Made by a program: the position numbers and the translations under genes. Below the pieces are notes generated by a model, which was not told where the DNA came from, did no database searches, and saw only the letters and a program-made list of their open reading frames with translations. Below are positions 4,547 through 43,954 of a stretch of 47,976 bases of DNA, in pieces. Source of the stretch: a virus. Its lineage: Duplodnaviria > Heunggongvirae > Uroviricota > Caudoviricetes. The number at the start of each line of letters is the position of its first letter. Position 1 is the first letter of the stretch. The stretch lies in IMG/VR virus record IMGVR_UViG_2512047041_000006; one strand, 5' to 3'.

Positions 4547-4600
4547 GGGCGGCAGAGCAGTCACGGAGTAAAACTGATACCGCCAAATGTCACCAGAAAA
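4547..4600 (-). ncRNA. dicF: DicF small RNA
   Basis: Minus-strand sequence TTTTCTGGTGACATTTGGCGGTATCAGTTTTACTCCGTGACTGCTCTGCCGCCC followed by T-run; near-identical to the 53-nt DicF of K-12 Qin prophage as recalled; includes its 3' stem-loop. Confidence 0.85.
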
Positions 4601-4934
4601 TTGATAACAGAGGGCGTTGTAGCGGGGTTGTCACTTAAGCGTATGGTCAACCTGACAACCCGGTGCATTTTCTGGAGCAATGGAGGAAACCCCAGCCATA
4701 CTTACCGCCGCGCCATTTCGCGGAGTGCCACAACCGGAAGCGCACGGTCGAACTAAATTTAACGACACCGTACAGAGAGACCAATTTCGCCGTGCGCTTT
4801 CGCGTTATGCCCTGACTTTTCAGGGACATATCCTTTCAGTAAGCTGTCAGTGCCGGATGCTCACCCGTGTCCGGCGCACGCACTCCACCTGACCCGTGGA
4901 GAACTCCTTAATTACCAACCCTCAGGAGGGTGAA

Positions 4935-11025: not shown

Positions 11026-11262
11026 TTTTATGGATCACCTTTCTGATTGATTTCATATTGGCGAGGTGACGTGAGTTAAGTAGAATGGCTGCGGGTGCTT
11101 GAGGCTATCTGTCTCAGGCATGAACACTGAAAGGCAGATAGAGAAAAGCCCCAGTTAACATTTCGCGTCCTGCAAGACGCTTAACATTAATCTGAGGCCC
11201 AATCTATGTCTCACAAATGTAGGTTAGCCTCTTACGTGCCGAAAGGCAAGGGGAAGCAGGCT

Positions 11263-11418
11263 ATGAAGCAGCAAAAGGCGATGTTAATCGCCCTGATCGT
11301 CATCTGTTTAACCGTCATAGTGACGGCACTGGTAACGAGGAAAGACCTCTGCGAGGTACGACTCCGAACCGGCCAGACGGAGGTCGCTGTCTTCACAGCT
11401 TACGAACCTGAGGAGTAA
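11263..11418 (+). CDS. hok: Hok/Gef family type I toxin
   Basis: 51-aa product MKQQKAMLIALIVICLTVIVTALVTRKDLCEVR.RTGQTEVAVFTAYEPEE, near-identical to HokD/RelF as recalled; in-frame upstream extension from 11206 may be a mok-like leader ORF. Confidence 0.85.
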   Translation: MKQQKAMLIALIVICLTVIVTALVTRKDLCEVRLRTGQTEVAVFTAYEPEE

Positions 11419-15626: not shown

Positions 15627-15702
15627 GGCCCTTTAGCTCAGTGGTGAGAGCGAGCGACTCATAATCGCCAGGTCGCTGGTTCAAATCCAGCAAGGGCCAC
15701 CA
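15627..15702 (+). tRNA. ileZ: tRNA-Ile2 (anticodon CAT, lysidine type; ileX/ileZ-like)
   Basis: 76 nt with encoded CCA; full cloverleaf fits; near-identical to E. coli ileX as recalled. Confidence 0.85.
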
Positions 15703-15709
15703 TCACATA

Positions 15710-15786
15710 CCGCCATTAGCTCATCAGGAAAGAGCGCCAGCTTTCGAAGCTGGTTGCGCGGAGTTCGGGTCCCCGAAGGCGGTCCA
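15710..15786 (+). tRNA. tRNA-Arg-like (anticodon TCG), atypical
   Basis: 77 nt cloverleaf with encoded CCA, anticodon loop TTTCGAA; one acceptor-stem and one T-stem mismatch, T-loop TTCGGGT, discriminator T - possibly degenerate. Confidence 0.5.
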
Positions 15787-15799
15787 TTATCTGTATCCT

Positions 15800-15876
15800 G
15801 CGTTGTTAGCTCAGCCGGACAGAGCAATTGCCTTCTAAGCAATCGGTCACTGGTTCGAATCCAGTACAACGCGCCA
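15800..15876 (+). tRNA. tRNA-Arg (anticodon TCT, argU-like)
   Basis: 77 nt; canonical cloverleaf, T-loop TTCGAAT, anticodon loop CTTCTAA, encoded CCA. Confidence 0.85.
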
Positions 15877-15920: not shown

Positions 15921-16133
15921 CTCACAATTCAGGCGGTTGACTGTTGTCTGGTTTGCGGGGAGTTTGTTAAAAGAAACTGGCATGGTGAATCCCCCTGTGC
16001 GGAGGGGCAATCAGCGAGTAGGTATATGGGATAATCGCGGATTCAGGTGCTGGTACTGAATTCACCGGGAGGCACCCGGCACCATGCAATGGCACATAGC
16101 GCCACTCTCCAGCCCCTCTCCGGAGGGGCTTTT
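15921..16133 (+). repeat. Noncoding repeat module, copy A
   Basis: Shares ordered conserved blocks with copy B: CTCACAATTCAG, GTTGAC, TTGTTAAAA, GCATGGTGAATCCCCCTG-GCGGAGGGGC, TCACCGGGAGGCACCCGGCACCATG, AGCCCCTCTCCGGAGGGGCTTT. Confidence 0.6.
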
Positions 16134-16388
16134 CTGTGCCGGATACATCACAGTTTCTGGAACCTTAGGTACTACAGTATCAGTCAGGGTGCTATATTTT
16201 CAGATGTGATGAAAGCCTGTCAGCAGGCAGGGCGTATCGGAAATGACCCAGTAGAGAAAACGTTGACTCAGATACCGGTGCTGAGTTACCGGGAAACCGG
16301 CATCACATGACCGCTATCCTTCCAGGCCCATCCGCTCCGGTGGGCCTTTTTACTGCAGAAAACAGGTTCCCCGTTAAATGCTATGTTG

Positions 16389-16620
16389 CTCACAATTCAG
16401 TAAGTTGACAGTTGCCTGTCAGACTGGGCATTTGTTAAAAAAATTTCGCATGGTGAATCCCCCTGAGCGGAGGGGCGACTGGTGACGGTATAATCTCTGA
16501 TTATCAAAACGAGAATGACGCGGGTTTAGTGGCACCGGGCTGAACTCACCGGGAGGCACCCGGCACCATGTGCATGATGATACAGATACGCGGCTTTAGC
16601 CCCTCTCCGGAGGGGCTTTC
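16389..16620 (+). repeat. Noncoding repeat module, copy B
   Basis: Second copy 468 bp downstream of copy A; contains a perfect TATAAT (in GGTATAATCTCT) and the same three GC-rich hairpins. Confidence 0.6.
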
Positions 16621-16850
16621 TTATGGACAAAAAAAGCCCGCGCTGGGAGACGCGGGCGGCAAGGAATAAACAATAAAACGTGAAGTAATATTTCAGCTGG
16701 CGAATAATACCCCATAGTAATCACTCTGCGCAACTGCGCGGTCTTTTTCGAATTGCGGGCTGTAGTCTCCCTTCTGCCATTGTCCTGTAACTTCCGGACT
16801 TCAGCCTGCTCCTTATCTGACTCACAACATTATCCCGCCCGGGAGGATTC

Positions 16851-22043: not shown

Positions 22044-22934
22044 TCAGGCTGCCAGATCATCGTTTCCGATGGAAGCATAATAAGCTTTTTCTGCTTCTGC
22101 CGGAGGAGTATGGCCCAGCCTTTCCAGCAATCGTCGATTGTTATACCAGTCCACCCACGTGAGTGTGGCCAGTTCCACTTCTGCACGGTTTTTCCAGCTC
22201 TTACGGTGTATTACCTCCGCTTTGTAAAGACCATTGATGCTCTCCGCCATCGCGTTGTCATACGAGTCGCCTGTACTTCCTGTTGATGCCAGTAATCCGG
22301 CTTCCTTAAGCCGCTGTGTGTAGGCCAGCGATACATACTGAGAACCTTTATCACTGTGATGGACCGTGCCGGACGGTCGACGGGCCCATAACGCCTGCTC
22401 CAGTGCATCCAGCACGAATGTCGTTTCCATGGACGATGAGACCCGCCACCCCACGATGTATCCGGCAAACACATCAATGATGAACGCCACATAGACGAAG
22501 CCCCGCCATGTGCTGACGTAAGTAAAATCAGCCACCCACAGCTGGTCAGGTCGTTCTGCCACGAACTGACGGTTTACGCGGTCGCCTGCGGCAACGGCTT
22601 TCCGGCTGATGGTCGTACGGACCTTTTTACCCCGGAGAACACCGGCAAGTCCCATAACCGCCATGAGACGTGCCACAGTGCATCTGGCCACTCTGATACC
22701 TTCCCGTAACAACTGACGCCAGACTTTACGCACACCGTATACCTTGTGATTTTCATCGTATACGCGCTGTATCTCTTTCTTCAGCCAGTCATCGCGCTGC
22801 GCACGGGCACTGCGTTTATCCGGATGATGTCGCTGTTGCTGACAGTGGTAATACGTTGACGGGGCAATATGCAGTTCGCTGCATAGCGGTCCGACCCCGT
22901 ACTGCTCACGCAGCTTATCCAGCAGTGGCATCAT
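22044..22934 (-). CDS. IS3-family transposase OrfB (DDE integrase domain)
   Basis: 296 aa, IS629-type OrfB sequence; start overlaps orfA end at an A-rich site consistent with frameshift fusion. Confidence 0.9.
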
Positions 22935-23257
22935 TTTTTCCAGAGGCGGTCGAACTCCGCCTTCGCAAAATAAGCGGAAGCCTGGCGAAGGATATCGTTA
23001 CTGCGGCGCAGTTCACGATTTTCACGTTCCAGCTCTTTCAGACGCTGACGTTCAGCGGTGGTGAGCCCTCCATCACCGCCCCCGGTATCCCGCTCATGCT
23101 GGCGAACCCAGACACGCAGAGTCTCCGGCGTACAGCCAATCTTTGGAGCAATGGAACAAATTGTCGCCCATTGTGAGTCATATTCGCTCTGACTTTCCAG
23201 AACCATACGGACTGCCCGTTGACGGACTTCGGGGGAAAAACGAGTATTTTTAGTCAT
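22931..23257 (-). CDS. IS3-family transposase OrfA (HTH)
   Basis: 108 aa; leucine-zipper-like C-terminus; ends in TGGAAAAAATGA overlapping orfB start. Confidence 0.9.
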
Positions 23258-37682: not shown

Positions 37683-38426
37683 ATGACACAGACTGAATCA
37701 GCGATTCTGGCGCATGCCCGGCGGTGTGCGCCTGCGGAGTCGTGCGGCTTCGTGATAAGCACGCCGGAGGGGGAGCGGTATATCCCTTGTGTGAATATTT
37801 CCGCGGAGCCGGAGGCGTATTTTCGTATCGCACCGGAAGACTGGCTGCGGGCAGAGATGCAGGGGGAGATTGTGGCACTGGTCCACAGTCATCCCGGTGG
37901 GCTGCCCTGGCTGAGCGAGGCTGACCGGCGGCTGCAGATAAAAAGCGCACTGCCCTGGTGGCTGGTCTGCCGGGGTGACATTCACAAATTCCGCTGTGTG
38001 CCACATCTGACGGGACGGCGCTTTGAGCACGGGGTGACGGACTGTTACACGCTGTTCCGGGATGCTTATCATCTGGCGGGGACTGAAATGCCGGATTTTC
38101 ATCGCGAGGATGACTGGTGGCGCAACGGCCAGAACCTGTACCTGGACAACCTGGCGGAAAACGGCTTTTGCCGGGTGTCTCCGTCCTCTGCACAGGCAGG
38201 CGATGTGCTGCTGTGCTGCTTTGGTTCATCGGTGCCGAATCATGCCGCCGTTTACTGTGGTGACGGCGAGCTGCTGCACCATATTCCTGAACAACTGAGT
38301 AAACGGGAGAGGTATTCCGAAAAATGGCAACGACGAACGCATTCAGTCTGGCGTCACCGCCACTGGCACGCATCCGCCTTTACGGGGATTTACAACGATT
38401 TGGCCGCCGCCTCAGCCTGTATGTGA
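37683..38426 (+). CDS. K: Tail tip assembly protein gpK (NlpC/P60-like)
   Basis: Starts MTQTESAILAHARRC; Cys/His catalytic region; 3' end overlaps gene I by 103 nt; ORF track begins upstream at 37422. Confidence 0.85.
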   Translation: MTQTESAILAHARRCAPAESCGFVISTPEGERYIPCVNISAEPEAYFRIAPEDWLRAEMQGEIVALVHSHPGGLPWLSEADRRLQIKSALPWWLVCRGDIHKFRCVPHLTGRRFEHGVTDCYTLFRDAYHLAGTEMPDFHREDDWWRNGQNLYLDNLAENGFCRVSPSSAQAGDVLLCCFGSSVPNHAAVYCGDGELLHHIPEQLSKRERYSEKWQRRTHSVWRHRHWHASAFTGIYNDLAAASACM

Positions 38427-39004
38427 ACACGGCAGCGGAAGCCATTCGCGCCCTGTCGATGCAGATGCCGGGCTTTCGCCGTCAGATGAACGAAGGCTGG
38501 TACCAGATACGTATTGCCGGTGATGACACGGCACCGGAGGCGGTGTACGCCCGTCTTCACGAACAGCTGGGTGAGGGAACGGTCATCCACATTGTGCCGC
38601 GACTGGCCGGGGCCGGAAAGGGTGGACTGCAGATTGTGCTGGGGGCGGCAGCCATCGTGGGCTCTTTCTTCACGGCCGGTGCCTCGATGGTGTTATGGGG
38701 TACAGCCCTGAGTGCCGGCGGTTTTTCTGCCACCACGATGCTGTTTTCACTGGGGGCCAGCATGATACTGGGCGGTGTGGCCCAGATGCTGGCCCCGAAG
38801 GCAAAAACACCGGATTACCGCGCAACGGATAACGGCAGACAGAACACGTACTTTTCCTCGCTGGATAACATGATTGCCCAGGGGAACCCGATGCCGGTGC
38901 CTTACGGGGAAATGCTGGTTGGCTCCCGCCGTATATCCCTGGACATCAGCACCCGTGATGAAGGCGGGGGCGGAAAGGTCGTGGTTATCGGGCGGCAGGG
39001 GTAA
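38324..39004 (+). CDS. I: Tail tip assembly protein gpI
   Basis: 226 aa; LYGDLQRFGRR...IHIVPR.AGA..GG...IVLGAAAI.GSFFTAGA as lambda I. Confidence 0.88.
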   Translation: MATTNAFSLASPPLARIRLYGDLQRFGRRLSLYVNTAAEAIRALSMQMPGFRRQMNEGWYQIRIAGDDTAPEAVYARLHEQLGEGTVIHIVPRLAGAGKGGLQIVLGAAAIVGSFFTAGASMVLWGTALSAGGFSATTMLFSLGASMILGGVAQMLAPKAKTPDYRATDNGRQNTYFSSLDNMIAQGNPMPVPYGEMLVGSRRISLDISTRDEGGGGKVVVIGRQG

Positions 39005-39007
39005 AAA

Positions 39008-39108
39008 GAATAAAAAAATCCCGCAGTGATCGCGGACAGGAACTGCGGGAGAGTTACGAAGATTAAGTGTAAGGAATTATTCTTATATCACGACAAAAAA
39101 ATTAACGC
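39008..39108 (-). ncRNA. Candidate small RNA in I-J intergenic insertion
   Basis: Minus-strand promoter (-35 TTCACA at 39137-39142, 16-bp spacer, -10 TATAAT at 39115-39120) followed about 65 nt downstream by hairpin CCCGCAGT...ACTGCGGG (39020-39049) and T-rich run ATTTTTTTATTCTTT; no ORF. Confidence 0.35.
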
Positions 39109-39114
39109 AGAGAA

Positions 39115-39142
39115 ATTATACGCGCCACAGTCAGTTTGTGAA
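39115..39142 (-). promoter_or_regulatory. Sigma70-like promoter driving candidate sRNA
   Basis: TTCACA-N16-TATAAT read on minus strand; AT-rich upstream region. Confidence 0.4.
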
Positions 39143-39347
39143 AATGTGAAGATATTCAGAATTTTTATGCCATTACCGGTTTTAACCAACAGGATTATCG
39201 GTGGGCATGAAAGAAAACCCCGGTATCTGCTGATACCGGGGTTTCTCTTTAGCATGGCAGAAATGTGTTTCATGCTTTTCGGGCGAAGGATATCCGACTT
39301 CTGTACGGAATGGCAAGTGGCGGTTAATTTATTCAGGGGAAGGCTGT

Positions 39348-42300
39348 ATGGGAAAAGGTGGCGGTAAGGCACACACGCCTCGTGAGGCGAAGGATAATCT
39401 CAAATCCACGCAGATGATGAGTGTGATTGATGCGATTGGTGAGGGACCGATAGAAGGTCCGGTGAAGGGACTGCAGAGTATTCTGGTGAACAAAACCCCG
39501 CTGACGGACACGGACGGTAATCCCGTGATACACGGTGTGACTGCGGTCTGGCGTGCCGGGGAGCAGGAGCAGACACCACCGGAAGGCTTTGAGTCCTCCG
39601 GAGCTGAAACCGGACTGGGCGTGGAAGTGACGAAGGCAAAACCGGTGACGCGCACCATTACGTCCGCGAACATTGACCGCCTGCGGGTTACCTTCGGGGT
39701 GCAGTCACTGGTGCAGACCACGTCAAAGGGCGACCGTAATCCTTCCTCTGTCCGGATTCTGATTCAGTTACAGCGTAATGGCCGCTGGGTGACGGAAAAG
39801 GATGTCACCATTAACGGCAAGACCACCTCGCAGTTCCTGGCCTCGGTGATTCTGGATAATCTGCCTCCCCGGCCCTTTAACATCCGGATGGTCAGGGAGA
39901 CGGCGGACAGCACCACGGACCAGCTGCAGAATAAGACGCTGTGGTCGTCATACACCGAAATCATCGATGTGAAACAGTGCTACCCGAACACGGCCATTGT
40001 GGGGCTGCAGGTGGATGCGGAGCAGTTCGGCGGCCAGCAGATGACGGTGAACTACCATATCCGCGGTCGCATCATCCAGGTGCCGTCAAACTATGACCCG
40101 GAAAAACGCACGTACAGTGGTATCTGGGACGGCAGCCTGAAACCGGCATACAGCAACAACCCGGCCTGGTGTCTGTGGGACATGCTGACTCACCCGCGCT
40201 ACGGCATGGGAAAACGTCTGGGGGCGGCGGATGTGGACAAGTGGGCGCTGTATGCCATCGGGCAGTACTGCGACCAGACGGTCCCGGATGGTTTCGGGGG
40301 GACCGAGCCGCGGATGACCTTTAATGCGTACCTGGCACAACAGCGTAAGGCGTGGGACGTTCTCAGTGATTTCTGCTCTGCGATGCGCTGTATGCCGGTA
40401 TGGAACGGCCAGACGCTGACGTTCGTTCAGGACCGTCCGTCGGATGTGGTGTGGCCGTACACCAACAGCGATGTGGTGGTGGATGATAACGGCGTGGGTT
40501 TCCGCTACAGCTTCAGTGCCCTGAAGGACCGGCACACGGCAGTGGAGGTGAATTACACCGACCCGCAGAACGGCTGGCAGACCTCCACGGAACTGGTGGA
40601 AGACCCGGAAGCCATACTGCGCTACGGACGCAACCTGCTGAAGATGGACGCGTTCGGCTGTACCAGCCGCGGTCAGGCCCACCGTGCCGGGCTGTGGGTG
40701 ATAAAGACCGAACTGCTGGAAACGCAGACGGTGGATTTCACGCTCGGGTCACAGGGGCTGCGTCACACACCCGGTGACATCATTGAAATCTGTGATAACG
40801 ACTATGCCGGGACCATGACCGGCGGACGTGTCCTGTCCATCGATGCCGCCAGCCGTACCCTGACGCTGGACCGGGAGGTGACACTGCCGGAGACCGGCAC
40901 GGCCACTGTTAATCTGATTAACGGCAGCGGTAAGCCGGCGAGCGTGGCCATCACCGCACACCCCGCGCCTGACCGGATACAGGTCAGCACCCTGCCGGAT
41001 GGTGTGGAGACATACGGGGTGTGGGGACTCTCCCTGCCGTCACTGCGTCGTCGCCTGTTCCGCTGTGTCTCCATCCGGGAAAACACGGACGGCACGTTCG
41101 CCATCACGGCGGTGCAGCACGTACCGGAAAAAGAAGCCATTGTGGATAACGGTGCCCGCTTTGAGCCGCAGTCAGGCAGCCTGAACAGCGTTATCCCACC
41201 GGCAGTGCAGCACCTGACGGTGGAGGTGAGTGCAGCTGACGGTCAGTATCTGGCACAGGCGAAATGGGACACGCCGCGGGTGGTGAAGGGTGTGCGCTTC
41301 AGTCTGCGTCTGACCAGCGGAAGCGGAGAAGACAGCCGTCTGGTGAGCACCGCCATCACCGCAGACACGGAGCACCGTTTCAGTGGTCTGCCGCTGGGGG
41401 AATACACCCTGACGGTGCGGGCCATTAACAGCTACGGCCAGCAGGGCGAACCTGCGACCACCACCTTCCGGATTAACGCGCCTGCAAAACCCGCCACCAT
41501 TGAGCTGACGCCGGGGTATTTTCAGATAACGGCGGTACCGGTGCTGGCGGTGTATGACCCGACGGTGCAGTTTGAGTTCTGGTTTTCGGAAAAACGCATC
41601 ACGAACACGGCACAGGTGGAAAAATCTGCCCGTTATCTGGGGACCGGCAGTCAGTGGACTGTCCAGGGCGATCGGATTAAGCCGGGGATGGATTTCTGGT
41701 TTTATGTGCGCAGTGTCAACCTGGTGGGCAAGTCTGCATTTGTGGAAGCCAGCGGGCAGGCCAGCAATGATGCAAAAGGGTATCTGGAATTTTTCCGTGG
41801 TCTGATAGATGAGACGCTGCTGGGGCAGGCACTGAAAAAGCGCATTGATGCGTCAGCCCTGCGATCGGATGTCACTCAACTGGAAGAGAATATCGGACAA
41901 CTGGAAGAAGACATCCGTCAGCGGATGGACACGGATATTGCGGAAGTGACCCGGAAAATCGGGGAGGCGGAAAACAGCCTCACGCAGCTGGTTGCGAAAA
42001 AGAATGAGGATCAGACGCTGGCCATCGCGCAGGTGAGTCAGAAAGTGGACCGTGTCAGCAGTGAAATCTCACAGACGGTCAGTCAGAGCAGTGAGGAAAA
42101 TACCCGACAGATAGCACAGGTCCGCCAGTACGTGGACAAAAAGCAAAGTGAAATCAAGCAGACAGTCAGCCAGGGCCAGTCAGAAAACGCCCGGCAGATA
42201 GCACAGGTCCGTCAGTACGTGGATGAAAAAGGGAGTGAAATTGCCTCGACCACGGATAAAAAACTGGGTGACCAGGCCGTGACCATACAGCAAATCCAGC

Positions 42301-43148
42301 GGGTTCAGTCAGACACGCGCGATAATCTGAATGCCATGTATATGCTGAAGGTGCAGAAAACGAAGAAGGGTATTCCGTATGTGGCCGGGATTGGCGCGGG
42401 GATCGAGGATGTCGATGGTCAGACGCTGAGTAACATTCTGCTGCAGGCCGATCGCATTGCGATGATTACTCCGGAGAACGGTAACACCACGCCGTTATTT
42501 GTGGCGCAGGGGAATCAGCTGTTCATGAACGACGTGTTCCTGAAGCGACTGTTTGCGGTGAGCATCACGTCATCCGGCAATCCTCCGACGTTTTCCCTGA
42601 CGCCGGATGGCAGGCTGACAGCCCGCAATGCGGATATCAGTGGAGCCATCACGGCGAATACCGGCACGCTCAATAATGTCACCATTAACGAGAACTGTGT
42701 CATCAGAGGGAAACTGTCTGCAAACCAGATTGAAGGCGATCTCGTTAAAACAGTGGGTAAGGCTTTCCCCCGTGACTCCCGTGCACCGGAGCGTTGGCCA
42801 TCAGGAACCATTACCGTCAGGGTTTATGACGATCAGCCGTTTAACCGGCAGATTGTTATTCCGGCGGTGGCTTTCAGCGGTGCCAGACATGAGCGGGAGA
42901 ACAGCGATACTTATTCGTCATGCCGCCTGATAGTGAAGAAAAACGGTGCTGAAATTTATAACCGTACCGCGATGGATAATACGCTGGTTTACAGTGGTGT
43001 TATTGATATGCCTGCTGGTCGCGGCCACATGACGCTGGAGTTTTCTGTATCAGCATGGTGGGTAAATGGCTGGTATCCCACAGCAAGTATCAGCGATTTG
43101 CTGGTTGTTGTGATGAAGAAAGCCACTGCAGGCATCACGATTAGCTGA
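39348..43148 (+). CDS. J: Tail tip host-specificity protein gpJ
   Basis: 1266 aa; lambda J-like N-terminal two-thirds; coiled-coil tandem repeats around residues 840-960; GGAAGG SD. Confidence 0.9.
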
Positions 43149-43166: not shown

Positions 43167-43191
43167 GGGCGCCAGAAATGGCGCCTTTTTT
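43167..43191 (+). terminator. Rho-independent terminator after J
   Basis: GGCGCC-AGAAAT-GGCGCC hairpin followed by TTTTTT. Confidence 0.6.
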
Positions 43192-43215
43192 ATTGCAGAA
43201 AAGCGAGAGGTAATT

Positions 43216-43815
43216 ATGCGTAAATTATGTGCTGTTATTCTGTCCGCAGTAGTCTGGCTGGTTGCCGCTGGTACGCCAGCGAGCGCAGCAGAGCATCAGT
43301 CCACACTAAGCGCCGGGTATCTTCAGACCCACACTGATATGCCAGGAAGCGATAATCTGAACGGGATTAACGTGAAATACCGTTATGAATTTACGGACAC
43401 GCTGGGGCTGATTACGTCTTTCAGTTATGCCGACGCAGAAGATGAACAAAAAACGCATTACAGCGATACCCGCTGGCATGAAGATTCCGTGCGTAACCGC
43501 TGGTTCAGCGTAATGGCGGGGCCGTCTGTGCGCGTGAATGAATGGTTCAGCGCGTATGCGATGGCGGGTGTGGCTTACAGCCGTGTGTCGACTTTCTCCG
43601 GGGATTATCTCCGCGTAACTGACAACAAGGGGAAAACGCACGACGTGCTGACCGGAAGTGATGACGGTCGCCACAGCAATACCTCTCTGGCGTGGGGGGC
43701 TGGCGTGCAGTTTAACCCGACCGAATCCGTGACCATTGACCTTGCTTATGAAGGTTCCGGTAGTGGCGACTGGCGAACGGATGCATTTATTGTTGGTATC
43801 GGATACCGTTTCTGA
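43216..43815 (+). CDS. lom: Lom-like outer membrane protein (Ail/PagC family)
   Basis: 199 aa; signal peptide, beta-barrel C-terminal GYRF; position after J as in lambda. Confidence 0.85.
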   Translation: MRKLCAVILSAVVWLVAAGTPASAAEHQSTLSAGYLQTHTDMPGSDNLNGINVKYRYEFTDTLGLITSFSYADAEDEQKTHYSDTRWHEDSVRNRWFSVMAGPSVRVNEWFSAYAMAGVAYSRVSTFSGDYLRVTDNKGKTHDVLTGSDDGRHSNTSLAWGAGVQFNPTESVTIDLAYEGSGSGDWRTDAFIVGIGYRF

Positions 43816-43920: not shown

Positions 43921-43954
43921 AGCCCGTGGCGTCACTGCTGCGGGCTTTTTTTAT
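43921..43954 (+). terminator. Rho-independent terminator after lom
   Basis: AGCCCGTGGC...GCTGCGGGCT hairpin followed by T9. Confidence 0.6.

Follow-up and report, generated by a model that had tools for sequence, protein, structure and literature searches.

A predicted small RNA gene antisense to the tail operon of a lambdoid prophage, and its relationship to PasB and EcOnc22-24

Small RNAs from the junction of tail genes I and J

Two sets of Hfq-bound RNAs described in pathogenic E. coli are the closest known relatives of the element considered here. The first is PasB (E2348CN_0006) of EPEC E2348/69, an 83-nt RNA encoded in prophage PP6 on the minus strand (NC_011601, 1466343-1466261), between E2348C_1436 and E2348C_1437 (Pearl Mizrahi 2021, PMC8550237, Table S6). 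By RefSeq and the GFF of the same study, these two genes are the tail genes I and J. PasB is Northern-validated and Hfq-dependent; it ranks 15th by interaction number in RIL-seq, with 37 interactions, and its level is 5- to 100-fold lower in an hfq mutant (log2FC -6.8 and -2.4; PMC8550237). In E2348/69 it reaches a baseMean of 482-1082, compared with 5-15 for the nearly silent I and J, and its level is higher in overnight LB than in DMEM (PMC8550237). It is found as the 3′ partner in Hfq chimeras, and its RIL-seq partners in the activating condition are bfpB, bfpI, the ftsZ leader, galE, ler, perB and rplX (PMC8550237). The second set consists of EcOnc22 (Sp15), EcOnc23 (Sp14) and EcOnc24 (Sp11) of EHEC Sakai, three homologous orphan Hfq-CRAC peaks (Tree 2014, PMC4104026, Table S2). 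EcOnc22 gives a Northern band of ~85 nt and is destabilized without hfq (PMC4104026).

Here we describe the I-J spacer of another lambdoid prophage, contained in a stretch of 47,976 nucleotides (IMG/VR record IMGVR_UViG_2512047041_000006), which we call the window and to which all positions refer unless another record is named. This spacer probably carries a non-coding "moron": an antisense sRNA gene with its own promoter and terminator, set in the silent late tail operon, and a diverged allele of the PasB / EcOnc22-24 family. What is new here is the very probable link of EcOnc22-24 to PasB, a probable under-count in the published survey of PasB, and an allele typical of ExPEC with another seed.

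The I-J spacer and its transcription unit

The features on which the argument depends are the following.

38324-39004, plus strand: tail assembly gene I (context); PF06805, lambda tail assembly protein I, E = 3e-16
39012-39049, minus strand: intrinsic terminator and putative 3′ module for Hfq binding; stem CCCGCAGT/ACTGCGGG, a loop of variable length, A + U7
39012-39108, minus strand: predicted sRNA of 97 nt, W-type allele of the PasB / EcOnc22-24 family by its fold and by alignment with PasB and the Sakai Sp15, Sp14 and Sp11 units
39057-39084, minus strand: conserved single-stranded core AAGAAUAAUUCCUUACACUUAAUCUUCG; an (AAN)3 tract, then UCCUUA...AAUCUUC; the most conserved internal block
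39115-39142, minus strand: sigma-70 promoter; -35 TTCACA (39142-39137), 16-nt spacer, -10 TATAAT (39120-39115); 11/12 match to consensus
39143-39347, plus strand: right-hand "long" spacer module, reaching the J start codon; recombines independently of the sRNA allele; fold z = -2.8
39145-39160, plus strand: candidate regulator site TGTGAAGATATTCAGA, directly before the -35; agrees with the CRP consensus TGTGA-N6-TCACA at 9/10 positions
39216-39243, both strands: second hairpin; perfect 12-bp stem, 4-nt loop, T-rich tails (plus TCTCTTT, minus TTCTTTC)
39348-43148, plus strand: tail tip / host specificity gene J (context); six gpJ Pfam domains, the full gpJ set

A Pfam search finds both I and J full-length around the spacer. 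Since the Pfam-identified I ends at 39004 and J begins at 39348, the noncoding gap is exactly 39005-39347, or 343 bp from the I stop to the J start. Its GC content is 41.7%, compared with 60.8% in I and 57.2% in J. The original prediction had called it an AT-rich noncoding insertion of this length, at a place where J follows almost directly after I in lambda. The ORF ends, the Pfam domains and the base composition bear out the length, the noncoding nature and the AT-richness, and the remark on lambda is fair, the gap there being 60 nt. "Insertion" is right in comparison with lambda, but in about one third of complete E. coli genomes this spacer is what lambdoid prophages normally have between I and J. 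The CFT073 genome has the same spacer at 100% identity (within the locus 1361641-1366983); because J there is 3693 nt and 3801 nt in the window, the two prophages are relatives and not the same. In RefSeq, the locus tags of CFT073 skip C_RS06870 exactly at the spacer, and no annotation is present there.

Mechanical ORFs cross the spacer at 39026-39367 (plus, 113 aa), 39088-39372 (minus, 94 aa) and 39182-39316 (minus, 44 aa), and one phage record annotates a hypothetical protein there. That the spacer encodes a small protein instead of an RNA regulator is nevertheless extremely unlikely. Of these ORFs the 113-aa and 94-aa ones were searched against Pfam, and neither has a match. The ORFs run through modules that are swapped wholesale among relatives (186 nt vs. 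83 nt), RefSeq leaves the place without annotation in CFT073 and the other top matches, and the promoter-to-terminator unit, read from its sequence, has no ORF of more than two codons after any start codon.

The promoter is the sole sigma-70 site matching at least 11 of the 12 consensus positions on either strand of the 48-kb window, 0.3 being expected from Markov-simulated sequence. The terminator has arms CCCGCAGT (39049-39042) and ACTGCGGG (39027-39020), forming a stem of 8+ bp, with A + U7 at 39019-39012; it folds with -15.7 kcal/mol (z = -3.2) and adjoins the I stop codon. Its U7 exceeds the minimum U-tract of four asked of a Rho-independent terminator in Table S6 of Pearl Mizrahi (2021). 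The start of the RNA was placed at the 7th nt past the -10 hexamer (39108) and its end at the U7 run, which gives the 97 nt. In the consensus fold, the core at 39057-39084 is unpaired, making it a candidate for both the Hfq distal-face site and the seed.

The minus-strand TTCACA-N16-TATAAT foreseen at 39142-39115 was recovered by the consensus scan. The untranslated minus-strand RNA of ~100 nt that had been proposed from it finds support in the predicted length, the lack of a usable ORF and the homology to PasB. Of the terminator, placed earlier at 39049-39005, the stem and the T-run are real, but the range down to 39005 takes in bases past the U-run, which ends at 39012.

The CRP-like site is centered about -44.5 from the predicted start, 3 bp off the class II norm of -41.5. 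By count it is not significant, as the 48-kb window has 2 such matches vs. 1.76 expected. Its half-sites are invariant in the family, and the 6-nt spacer between them differs among the W/E, Sakai and L130 lineages. Activator-dependent promoters often have a poor -35, and such a -35 is seen in the Sakai allele. Spf is CRP-repressed. The higher level of PasB in overnight LB than in DMEM is the opposite of Spf behavior and would fit, without proving, a hypothetical control by CRP.

The right half of the spacer is formed by one of two modules that can replace each other, one of 186 nt, present in the window, and one of 83-84 nt; both combine freely with the sRNA alleles. Because of this interchange, Stx phages share only 39005-39168 with the window. 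The second hairpin, with the perfect 12-bp stem that had been predicted at 39216-39243, stands out on both strands (z about -5). It occurs only within the 186-nt module, in 1444 genomes, the same number as have the full spacer; a dispersed repeat was considered and rejected on account of this confinement to the long I-J module. In one IMG/VR locus the hairpin has been lost by a 47-nt deletion (window 39214-39260) between the short direct repeats CATGAAAGAAA and CATGGCAGAAA. At the equivalent place, the 83-nt module has on its plus strand a different hairpin followed by TTGTTTTTGTG, so that both modules present a strong hairpin and a T-rich run on the sense (plus) strand between the sRNA promoter and J. 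We tentatively suggest that the second hairpin is a sense-strand terminator or attenuator before J, passed only by Q-modified polymerase, a reading that we hold at somewhat less than even confidence. It is the simplest one because the same operon has sense-strand terminators after J and after lom. The hairpin could also halt antisense transcripts before they reach the sRNA promoter.

The two sense-strand terminators are at 43167-43194 (plus; GGGCGCC-AGAAAT-GGCGCC + T6), after J, and at 43921-43953 (plus; AGCCCG…CGGGC + T7), after the Ail/Lom gene (43216-43815). The latter has CTGCGGGCTTTTTT in common with the sRNA terminator motif. Bracketed in this way by terminators, the lom gene looks like a classical moron.

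Relationship to PasB and EcOnc22-24

By homology and by position, the window unit is a divergent allele, here W-type, of the PasB / EcOnc22-24 family. Like PasB, it lies in the I-J gap of a lambdoid prophage, between genes identified by Pfam, and is antisense to the tail operon. The two also share the central core and are of similar size; their promoter blocks are nearly identical, and both RNAs end in the same 25 nt. The Northern probe for PasB, AATCCCGCAGTGATCGCGGAGCT, has 23 nt, 20 of which are present at window 39019-39038. Aligned pairwise, the transcripts show ~79% identity, the figure in the multiple alignment being 60%, and a chain of intermediate mosaic variants joins the window allele to PasB of E2348/69. 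Unlike PasB, the window allele has a different 5′ third and pre-terminator segment and a longer terminator loop, and the right half of its spacer is the other module (186 nt vs. 84 nt in E2348/69). In E2348/69 the RNA is 83 nt by RNA-seq coverage and would be ~98 nt from the promoter; the predicted 5′ end lies ~15 nt upstream of the reported one, which may be either a primary start or the product of later processing.

The original prediction had noted that prophages of pathogenic E. coli encode Hfq-binding sRNAs and anti-sRNAs, and left the class of this unit undecided. The homology to PasB settles the question in favor of the former; the unit is not an anti-sRNA of the AgvB / AsxR kind. The observation and the interpretation put forward then were both correct. 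Since expression, size, Hfq dependence and RIL-seq partners are known from the homologues, we infer by analogy that the W-type allele, too, would be expressed and Hfq-dependent. We found no report of the W-type RNA in the UPEC/ExPEC literature; a UPEC Hfq co-IP study (PMC4546395) describes only PapR and C271, and nothing at the I-J locus.

Homologous units are present in the I-J gaps of all three EHEC Sakai prophages concerned, Sp15, Sp14 and Sp11, where they represent a third allele (S-type). In the current Sakai record, EcOnc22-24 each lie between the tail assembly and host-specificity genes, on the antisense strand. The coordinates of Tree (2014) refer to NC_002695.1. The shift to NC_002695.2, measured at AgvB1 (1941920-1941981, located by its Rfam model), is +137 to +146. 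The shifted EcOnc22 peak is 2902851-2902920, within the Sp15 RNA predicted at 2902836-2902926, and EcOnc23 and EcOnc24, shifted likewise, are also within their units. EcOnc22-24 are, therefore, very probably PasB homologues, the link falling short of proof in that the site used to determine the shift is 1 Mb from the locus. Any reuse of the EcOnc table of Tree (2014) needs a lift-over to the current Sakai record. The likeness to the window unit comprises an Hfq-bound RNA of ~85 nt in the I-J gap, antisense to the tail operon, and homologous promoter, core and terminator; the S-type differs in its -10, AATAAT, in its poor match to the -35 and in its body, which is shorter by 6 nt. Two sRNAs named independently, in 2014 and in 2021, are thereby tied together. 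Table S6 of PMC8550237 gives EHEC homologues for PasA and PasD and none for PasB, and the link is absent from the sections consulted of the 2026 PasB survey (Zhu, Shabalina and Storz 2026, bioRxiv 10.64898/2026.05.13.724894).

Rfam 15 has no family at gathering score over the window spacer, and none in 38900-39450 even at E ≤ 10; weak matches over the spacer merely settle on the hairpin. Nothing is found in the Sakai Sp15 spacer either, the PasB / EcOnc22-24 family being without an Rfam model. To define the family, 120 IMG/VR loci were fetched by a 24-mer from the promoter-upstream block, and E2348/69, Sakai and four diverged chromosomal copies were added, giving 42 distinct units. The comparison of I-J junctions among lambdoid prophages, as proposed originally, places the homologous sRNA unit between I and J at every locus inspected. 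Conserved are the promoter, almost invariant among the 42, with ~30 nt upstream of it; the first transcribed bases, GCGUUA and a U-run; a central block of (AAN)3-4 followed by UCCUUA..UUAAUCUUC; and the terminator stem with its U7 tail. The segment past the 5′ U-run, the segment before the terminator and the terminator loop (4 to 14 nt) are variable and mosaic.

For 28 transcripts, RNAalifold predicts the terminator stem as the only structure; its 7 bp are invariant, and no compensatory changes occur among the 28 variants. As the stem never varies, the structure is backed by invariance and not by covariation. A standard Hfq-dependent base-pairing sRNA begins with a weak hairpin, keeps its A-rich and seed region unpaired, and ends in a terminator with a long U tail. 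The layout of the family would fit this description. In two loci (L032 and L122), an IS-like sequence (…TGAACCGCCCCGGGAATCCTGGAGACTAAACT…, encoding the start of a transposase) splits the unit immediately past TTTTCACAAACTGA; as the interruption falls between the -35 and the -10, the sRNA gene there would be inactive.

According to Zhu et al., the seed directly precedes the terminator (bioRxiv 10.64898/2026.05.13.724894). In that segment the W-type and E2348/69 alleles share only AUCUUC, and half of the proposed seed differs. A sliding 18-nt scan predicts that the core of the E-type, the E2348/69 allele (CCUUCACAUUGAUCUUCA), can form two helices with the RIL-seq-mapped ler stretch (-20.6 kcal/mol), and that the W-type core cannot. 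It is the one persuasive pairing of the scan; the other matches are GC-rich and not trusted. In predicted whole-RNA duplexes with ftsZ, ler and galE, which proved uninformative, the W and E alleles do no better than shuffled sRNA, and the S allele is only nominally better, 21 of 300 shuffles being at least as good. Because half of the proposed seed differs, the target set of the W-type probably differs from that of PasB in E2348/69. This difference, together with the loss of the predicted ler pairing, means that the published PasB partners are not transferable to the W-type.

The family is widespread in E. coli. The 104-nt unit of the window (W-type) is present in 799 of 5426 complete genomes, in ~633 of them at 99% identity or more. 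The identical 343-bp spacer occurs in CFT073, S88, ATCC 25922, IAI39-type and ST131-type strains, and the full spacer in 1444 genomes. A sensitive blastn with the window unit and promoter finds the whole family in 1846 of the 5426 genomes, at 4759 places and up to nine per genome, a number reached in O157 strains. With the 83-nt PasB of E2348/69 as the query, megablast returns 956 genomes, all matches being at least 90% identical. The exact promoter-upstream 24-mer is present in just 3 of 185,579 GTDB species representatives: E. albertii and two short contigs. The contigs, one of 546 bp in Asaia platycodi JCM 25414 (L122) and one of 3.4 kb in Streptomyces flavalbus (L124), carry the E. coli prophage spacer and are almost certainly assembly contamination.

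The 2026 survey of PasB used blastn with word size 28 and query coverage >75%, and its relaxed search left out Escherichia and Shigella (Zhu, Shabalina and Storz 2026, bioRxiv 10.64898/2026.05.13.724894). By these settings the window allele escapes detection with the 83-nt query, because the longest exact stretch shared is 25 nt, below the word size. The W-type allele was probably not counted, and the same is probably true of the Sakai S-type. By these counts the family is about twice as widespread as an identity-based search suggests (1846 vs. 956 of 5426 complete genomes).

These numbers also bear on whether the W-type allele is an inactive relic in a decaying prophage, either unexpressed or without targets. 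Its body shares no more than 60-79% identity with the validated PasB, the prophage holds an IS-type element (the ALIL match given below), and some members of the family are IS-disrupted in the promoter, as in L032 and L122. A relic would not be expected to show an intact 11/12 promoter and terminator, a retained core, full-length I and J on either side and copies at least 99% identical in ~633 genomes. We consider this explanation very unlikely.

Proposed action and comparison with other prophage RNAs

We envisage the unit as working in the lysogen. Host RNA polymerase would start at ~39108 and stop at the U-run 39018-39012, producing an RNA of ~97 nt. Hfq would bind and stabilize it through the terminator hairpin and U7 tail, and probably also through the AAG-AAU-AAU tract. 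The core UCCUUACACUUAAUCUUCG (39075-39057), with the adjacent segment, would then act in trans, base-pairing with mRNAs from other mobile elements and the host core genome and so altering how these are translated or how stable they are. The seed of the W-type would lie in this region.

The same RNA might instead act mainly in cis on the late tail mRNA, lowering or uncoupling J expression in lytic growth via RNase III or transcriptional interference, with pairing in trans being incidental. The geometry is suggestive: the RNA is perfectly complementary to the I-J intercistronic stretch and is transcribed head-on, from a strong promoter convergent with late transcription; in all loci inspected the gene is confined to the I-J junction; its terminator adjoins the I stop codon; and in both module types a sense-strand terminator-like hairpin lies toward J. 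However, the RNA overlaps no coding sequence, nor the J ribosome-binding site, which is ~240 nt away, and lambda manages without such an element. The E2348/69 RNA accumulates at a time when the tail genes are silent, and 37 unlinked partners are joined to it in Hfq-dependent chimeras. The seed-like core is also kept where the flanking complementary sequence varies, a pattern that a pure antisense RNA does not need. An action mainly in cis thus appears unlikely.

A further generalization can be entertained, although we regard it as rather doubtful: the I-J junction may be a conserved sRNA "socket," in which a fixed promoter (perhaps CRP-controlled) and Hfq-binding terminator are combined with seed segments shuffled by recombination, the W-type being a functionally distinct regulator with its own targets. 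Were this so, the W-type, which ~15% of complete E. coli genomes carry and which is typical of ExPEC lineages (CFT073 and S88, for example), would not be a mere copy of PasB, and about half of the family would have escaped the survey, as would the link to EcOnc22-24. With its differing seed, the ExPEC-typical allele offers a concrete case in which a prophage may regulate post-transcriptionally in a strain-specific way, and any target found for it would be new. The result is modest: a 343-bp gap, unannotated in many clinical E. coli genomes, gains a name and a likely mechanism.

The window contains other RNA genes. Rfam matches DicF at 4547-4598 (minus, 77 bits) and two tandem copies of STnc100 at 15951-16141 and 16419-16628 (plus, 165 and 136 bits). 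The latter are in the PR′/moron region, with three tRNA genes (15627-15873, plus) just upstream. With DicF, the two STnc100 copies and the PasB-type unit, the prophage has at least four sRNA genes. A match to the sok antitoxin RNA at 11093-11268 (plus, 120 bits) implies a hok/sok-type toxin locus, and one to the ALIL pseudoknot at 22860-22976 (minus, 120 bits), an IS3-family frameshift signal, implies an IS element in the prophage.

AgvB and AsxR (RF02702, RF02703) were considered as the identity of the I-J unit and rejected: their locus is another, and neither matches within 38900-39450 at E ≤ 10. The AgvB model does find AgvB1 of Sakai, which served as a positive control, and elsewhere in the window AgvB / AsxR are matched only by way of the related STnc100 family. 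STnc100 is in turn related to PasD by Zhu et al. (bioRxiv 10.64898/2026.05.13.724894). AgvB / AsxR and STnc100 / PasD resemble the I-J unit in being Hfq-bound, terminator-ended sRNAs of lambdoid prophages in pathogenic E. coli. They differ in position, the PR′ moron site downstream of Q being ~23 kb away, and in size: AgvB / AsxR are 51-60 nt with a conserved 3′ region of ~42 nt, and STnc100 / PasD about 170-200 nt, compared with the 97 nt predicted here. DicF, an sRNA of Qin/Kim-type prophages, is also Hfq-dependent, and the ftsZ leader is both its classical target and a RIL-seq partner of PasB. However, DicF is unrelated in sequence and locus, and is processed from a longer operon transcript, without a promoter-terminator unit of its own.

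In general organization, there is a parallel with the lambdoid morons, such as lom and bor (Juhala et al. 2000). The I-J unit has, like them, an autonomous promoter and terminator and a deviant composition, and is an extra unit between two genes of the late operon. Morons are expressed from the repressed prophage; for the I-J unit, expression in the lysogen is known from the E2348/69 homologue. It differs from the lambdoid morons in having no protein-coding gene and in being antisense to the operon in which it lies.
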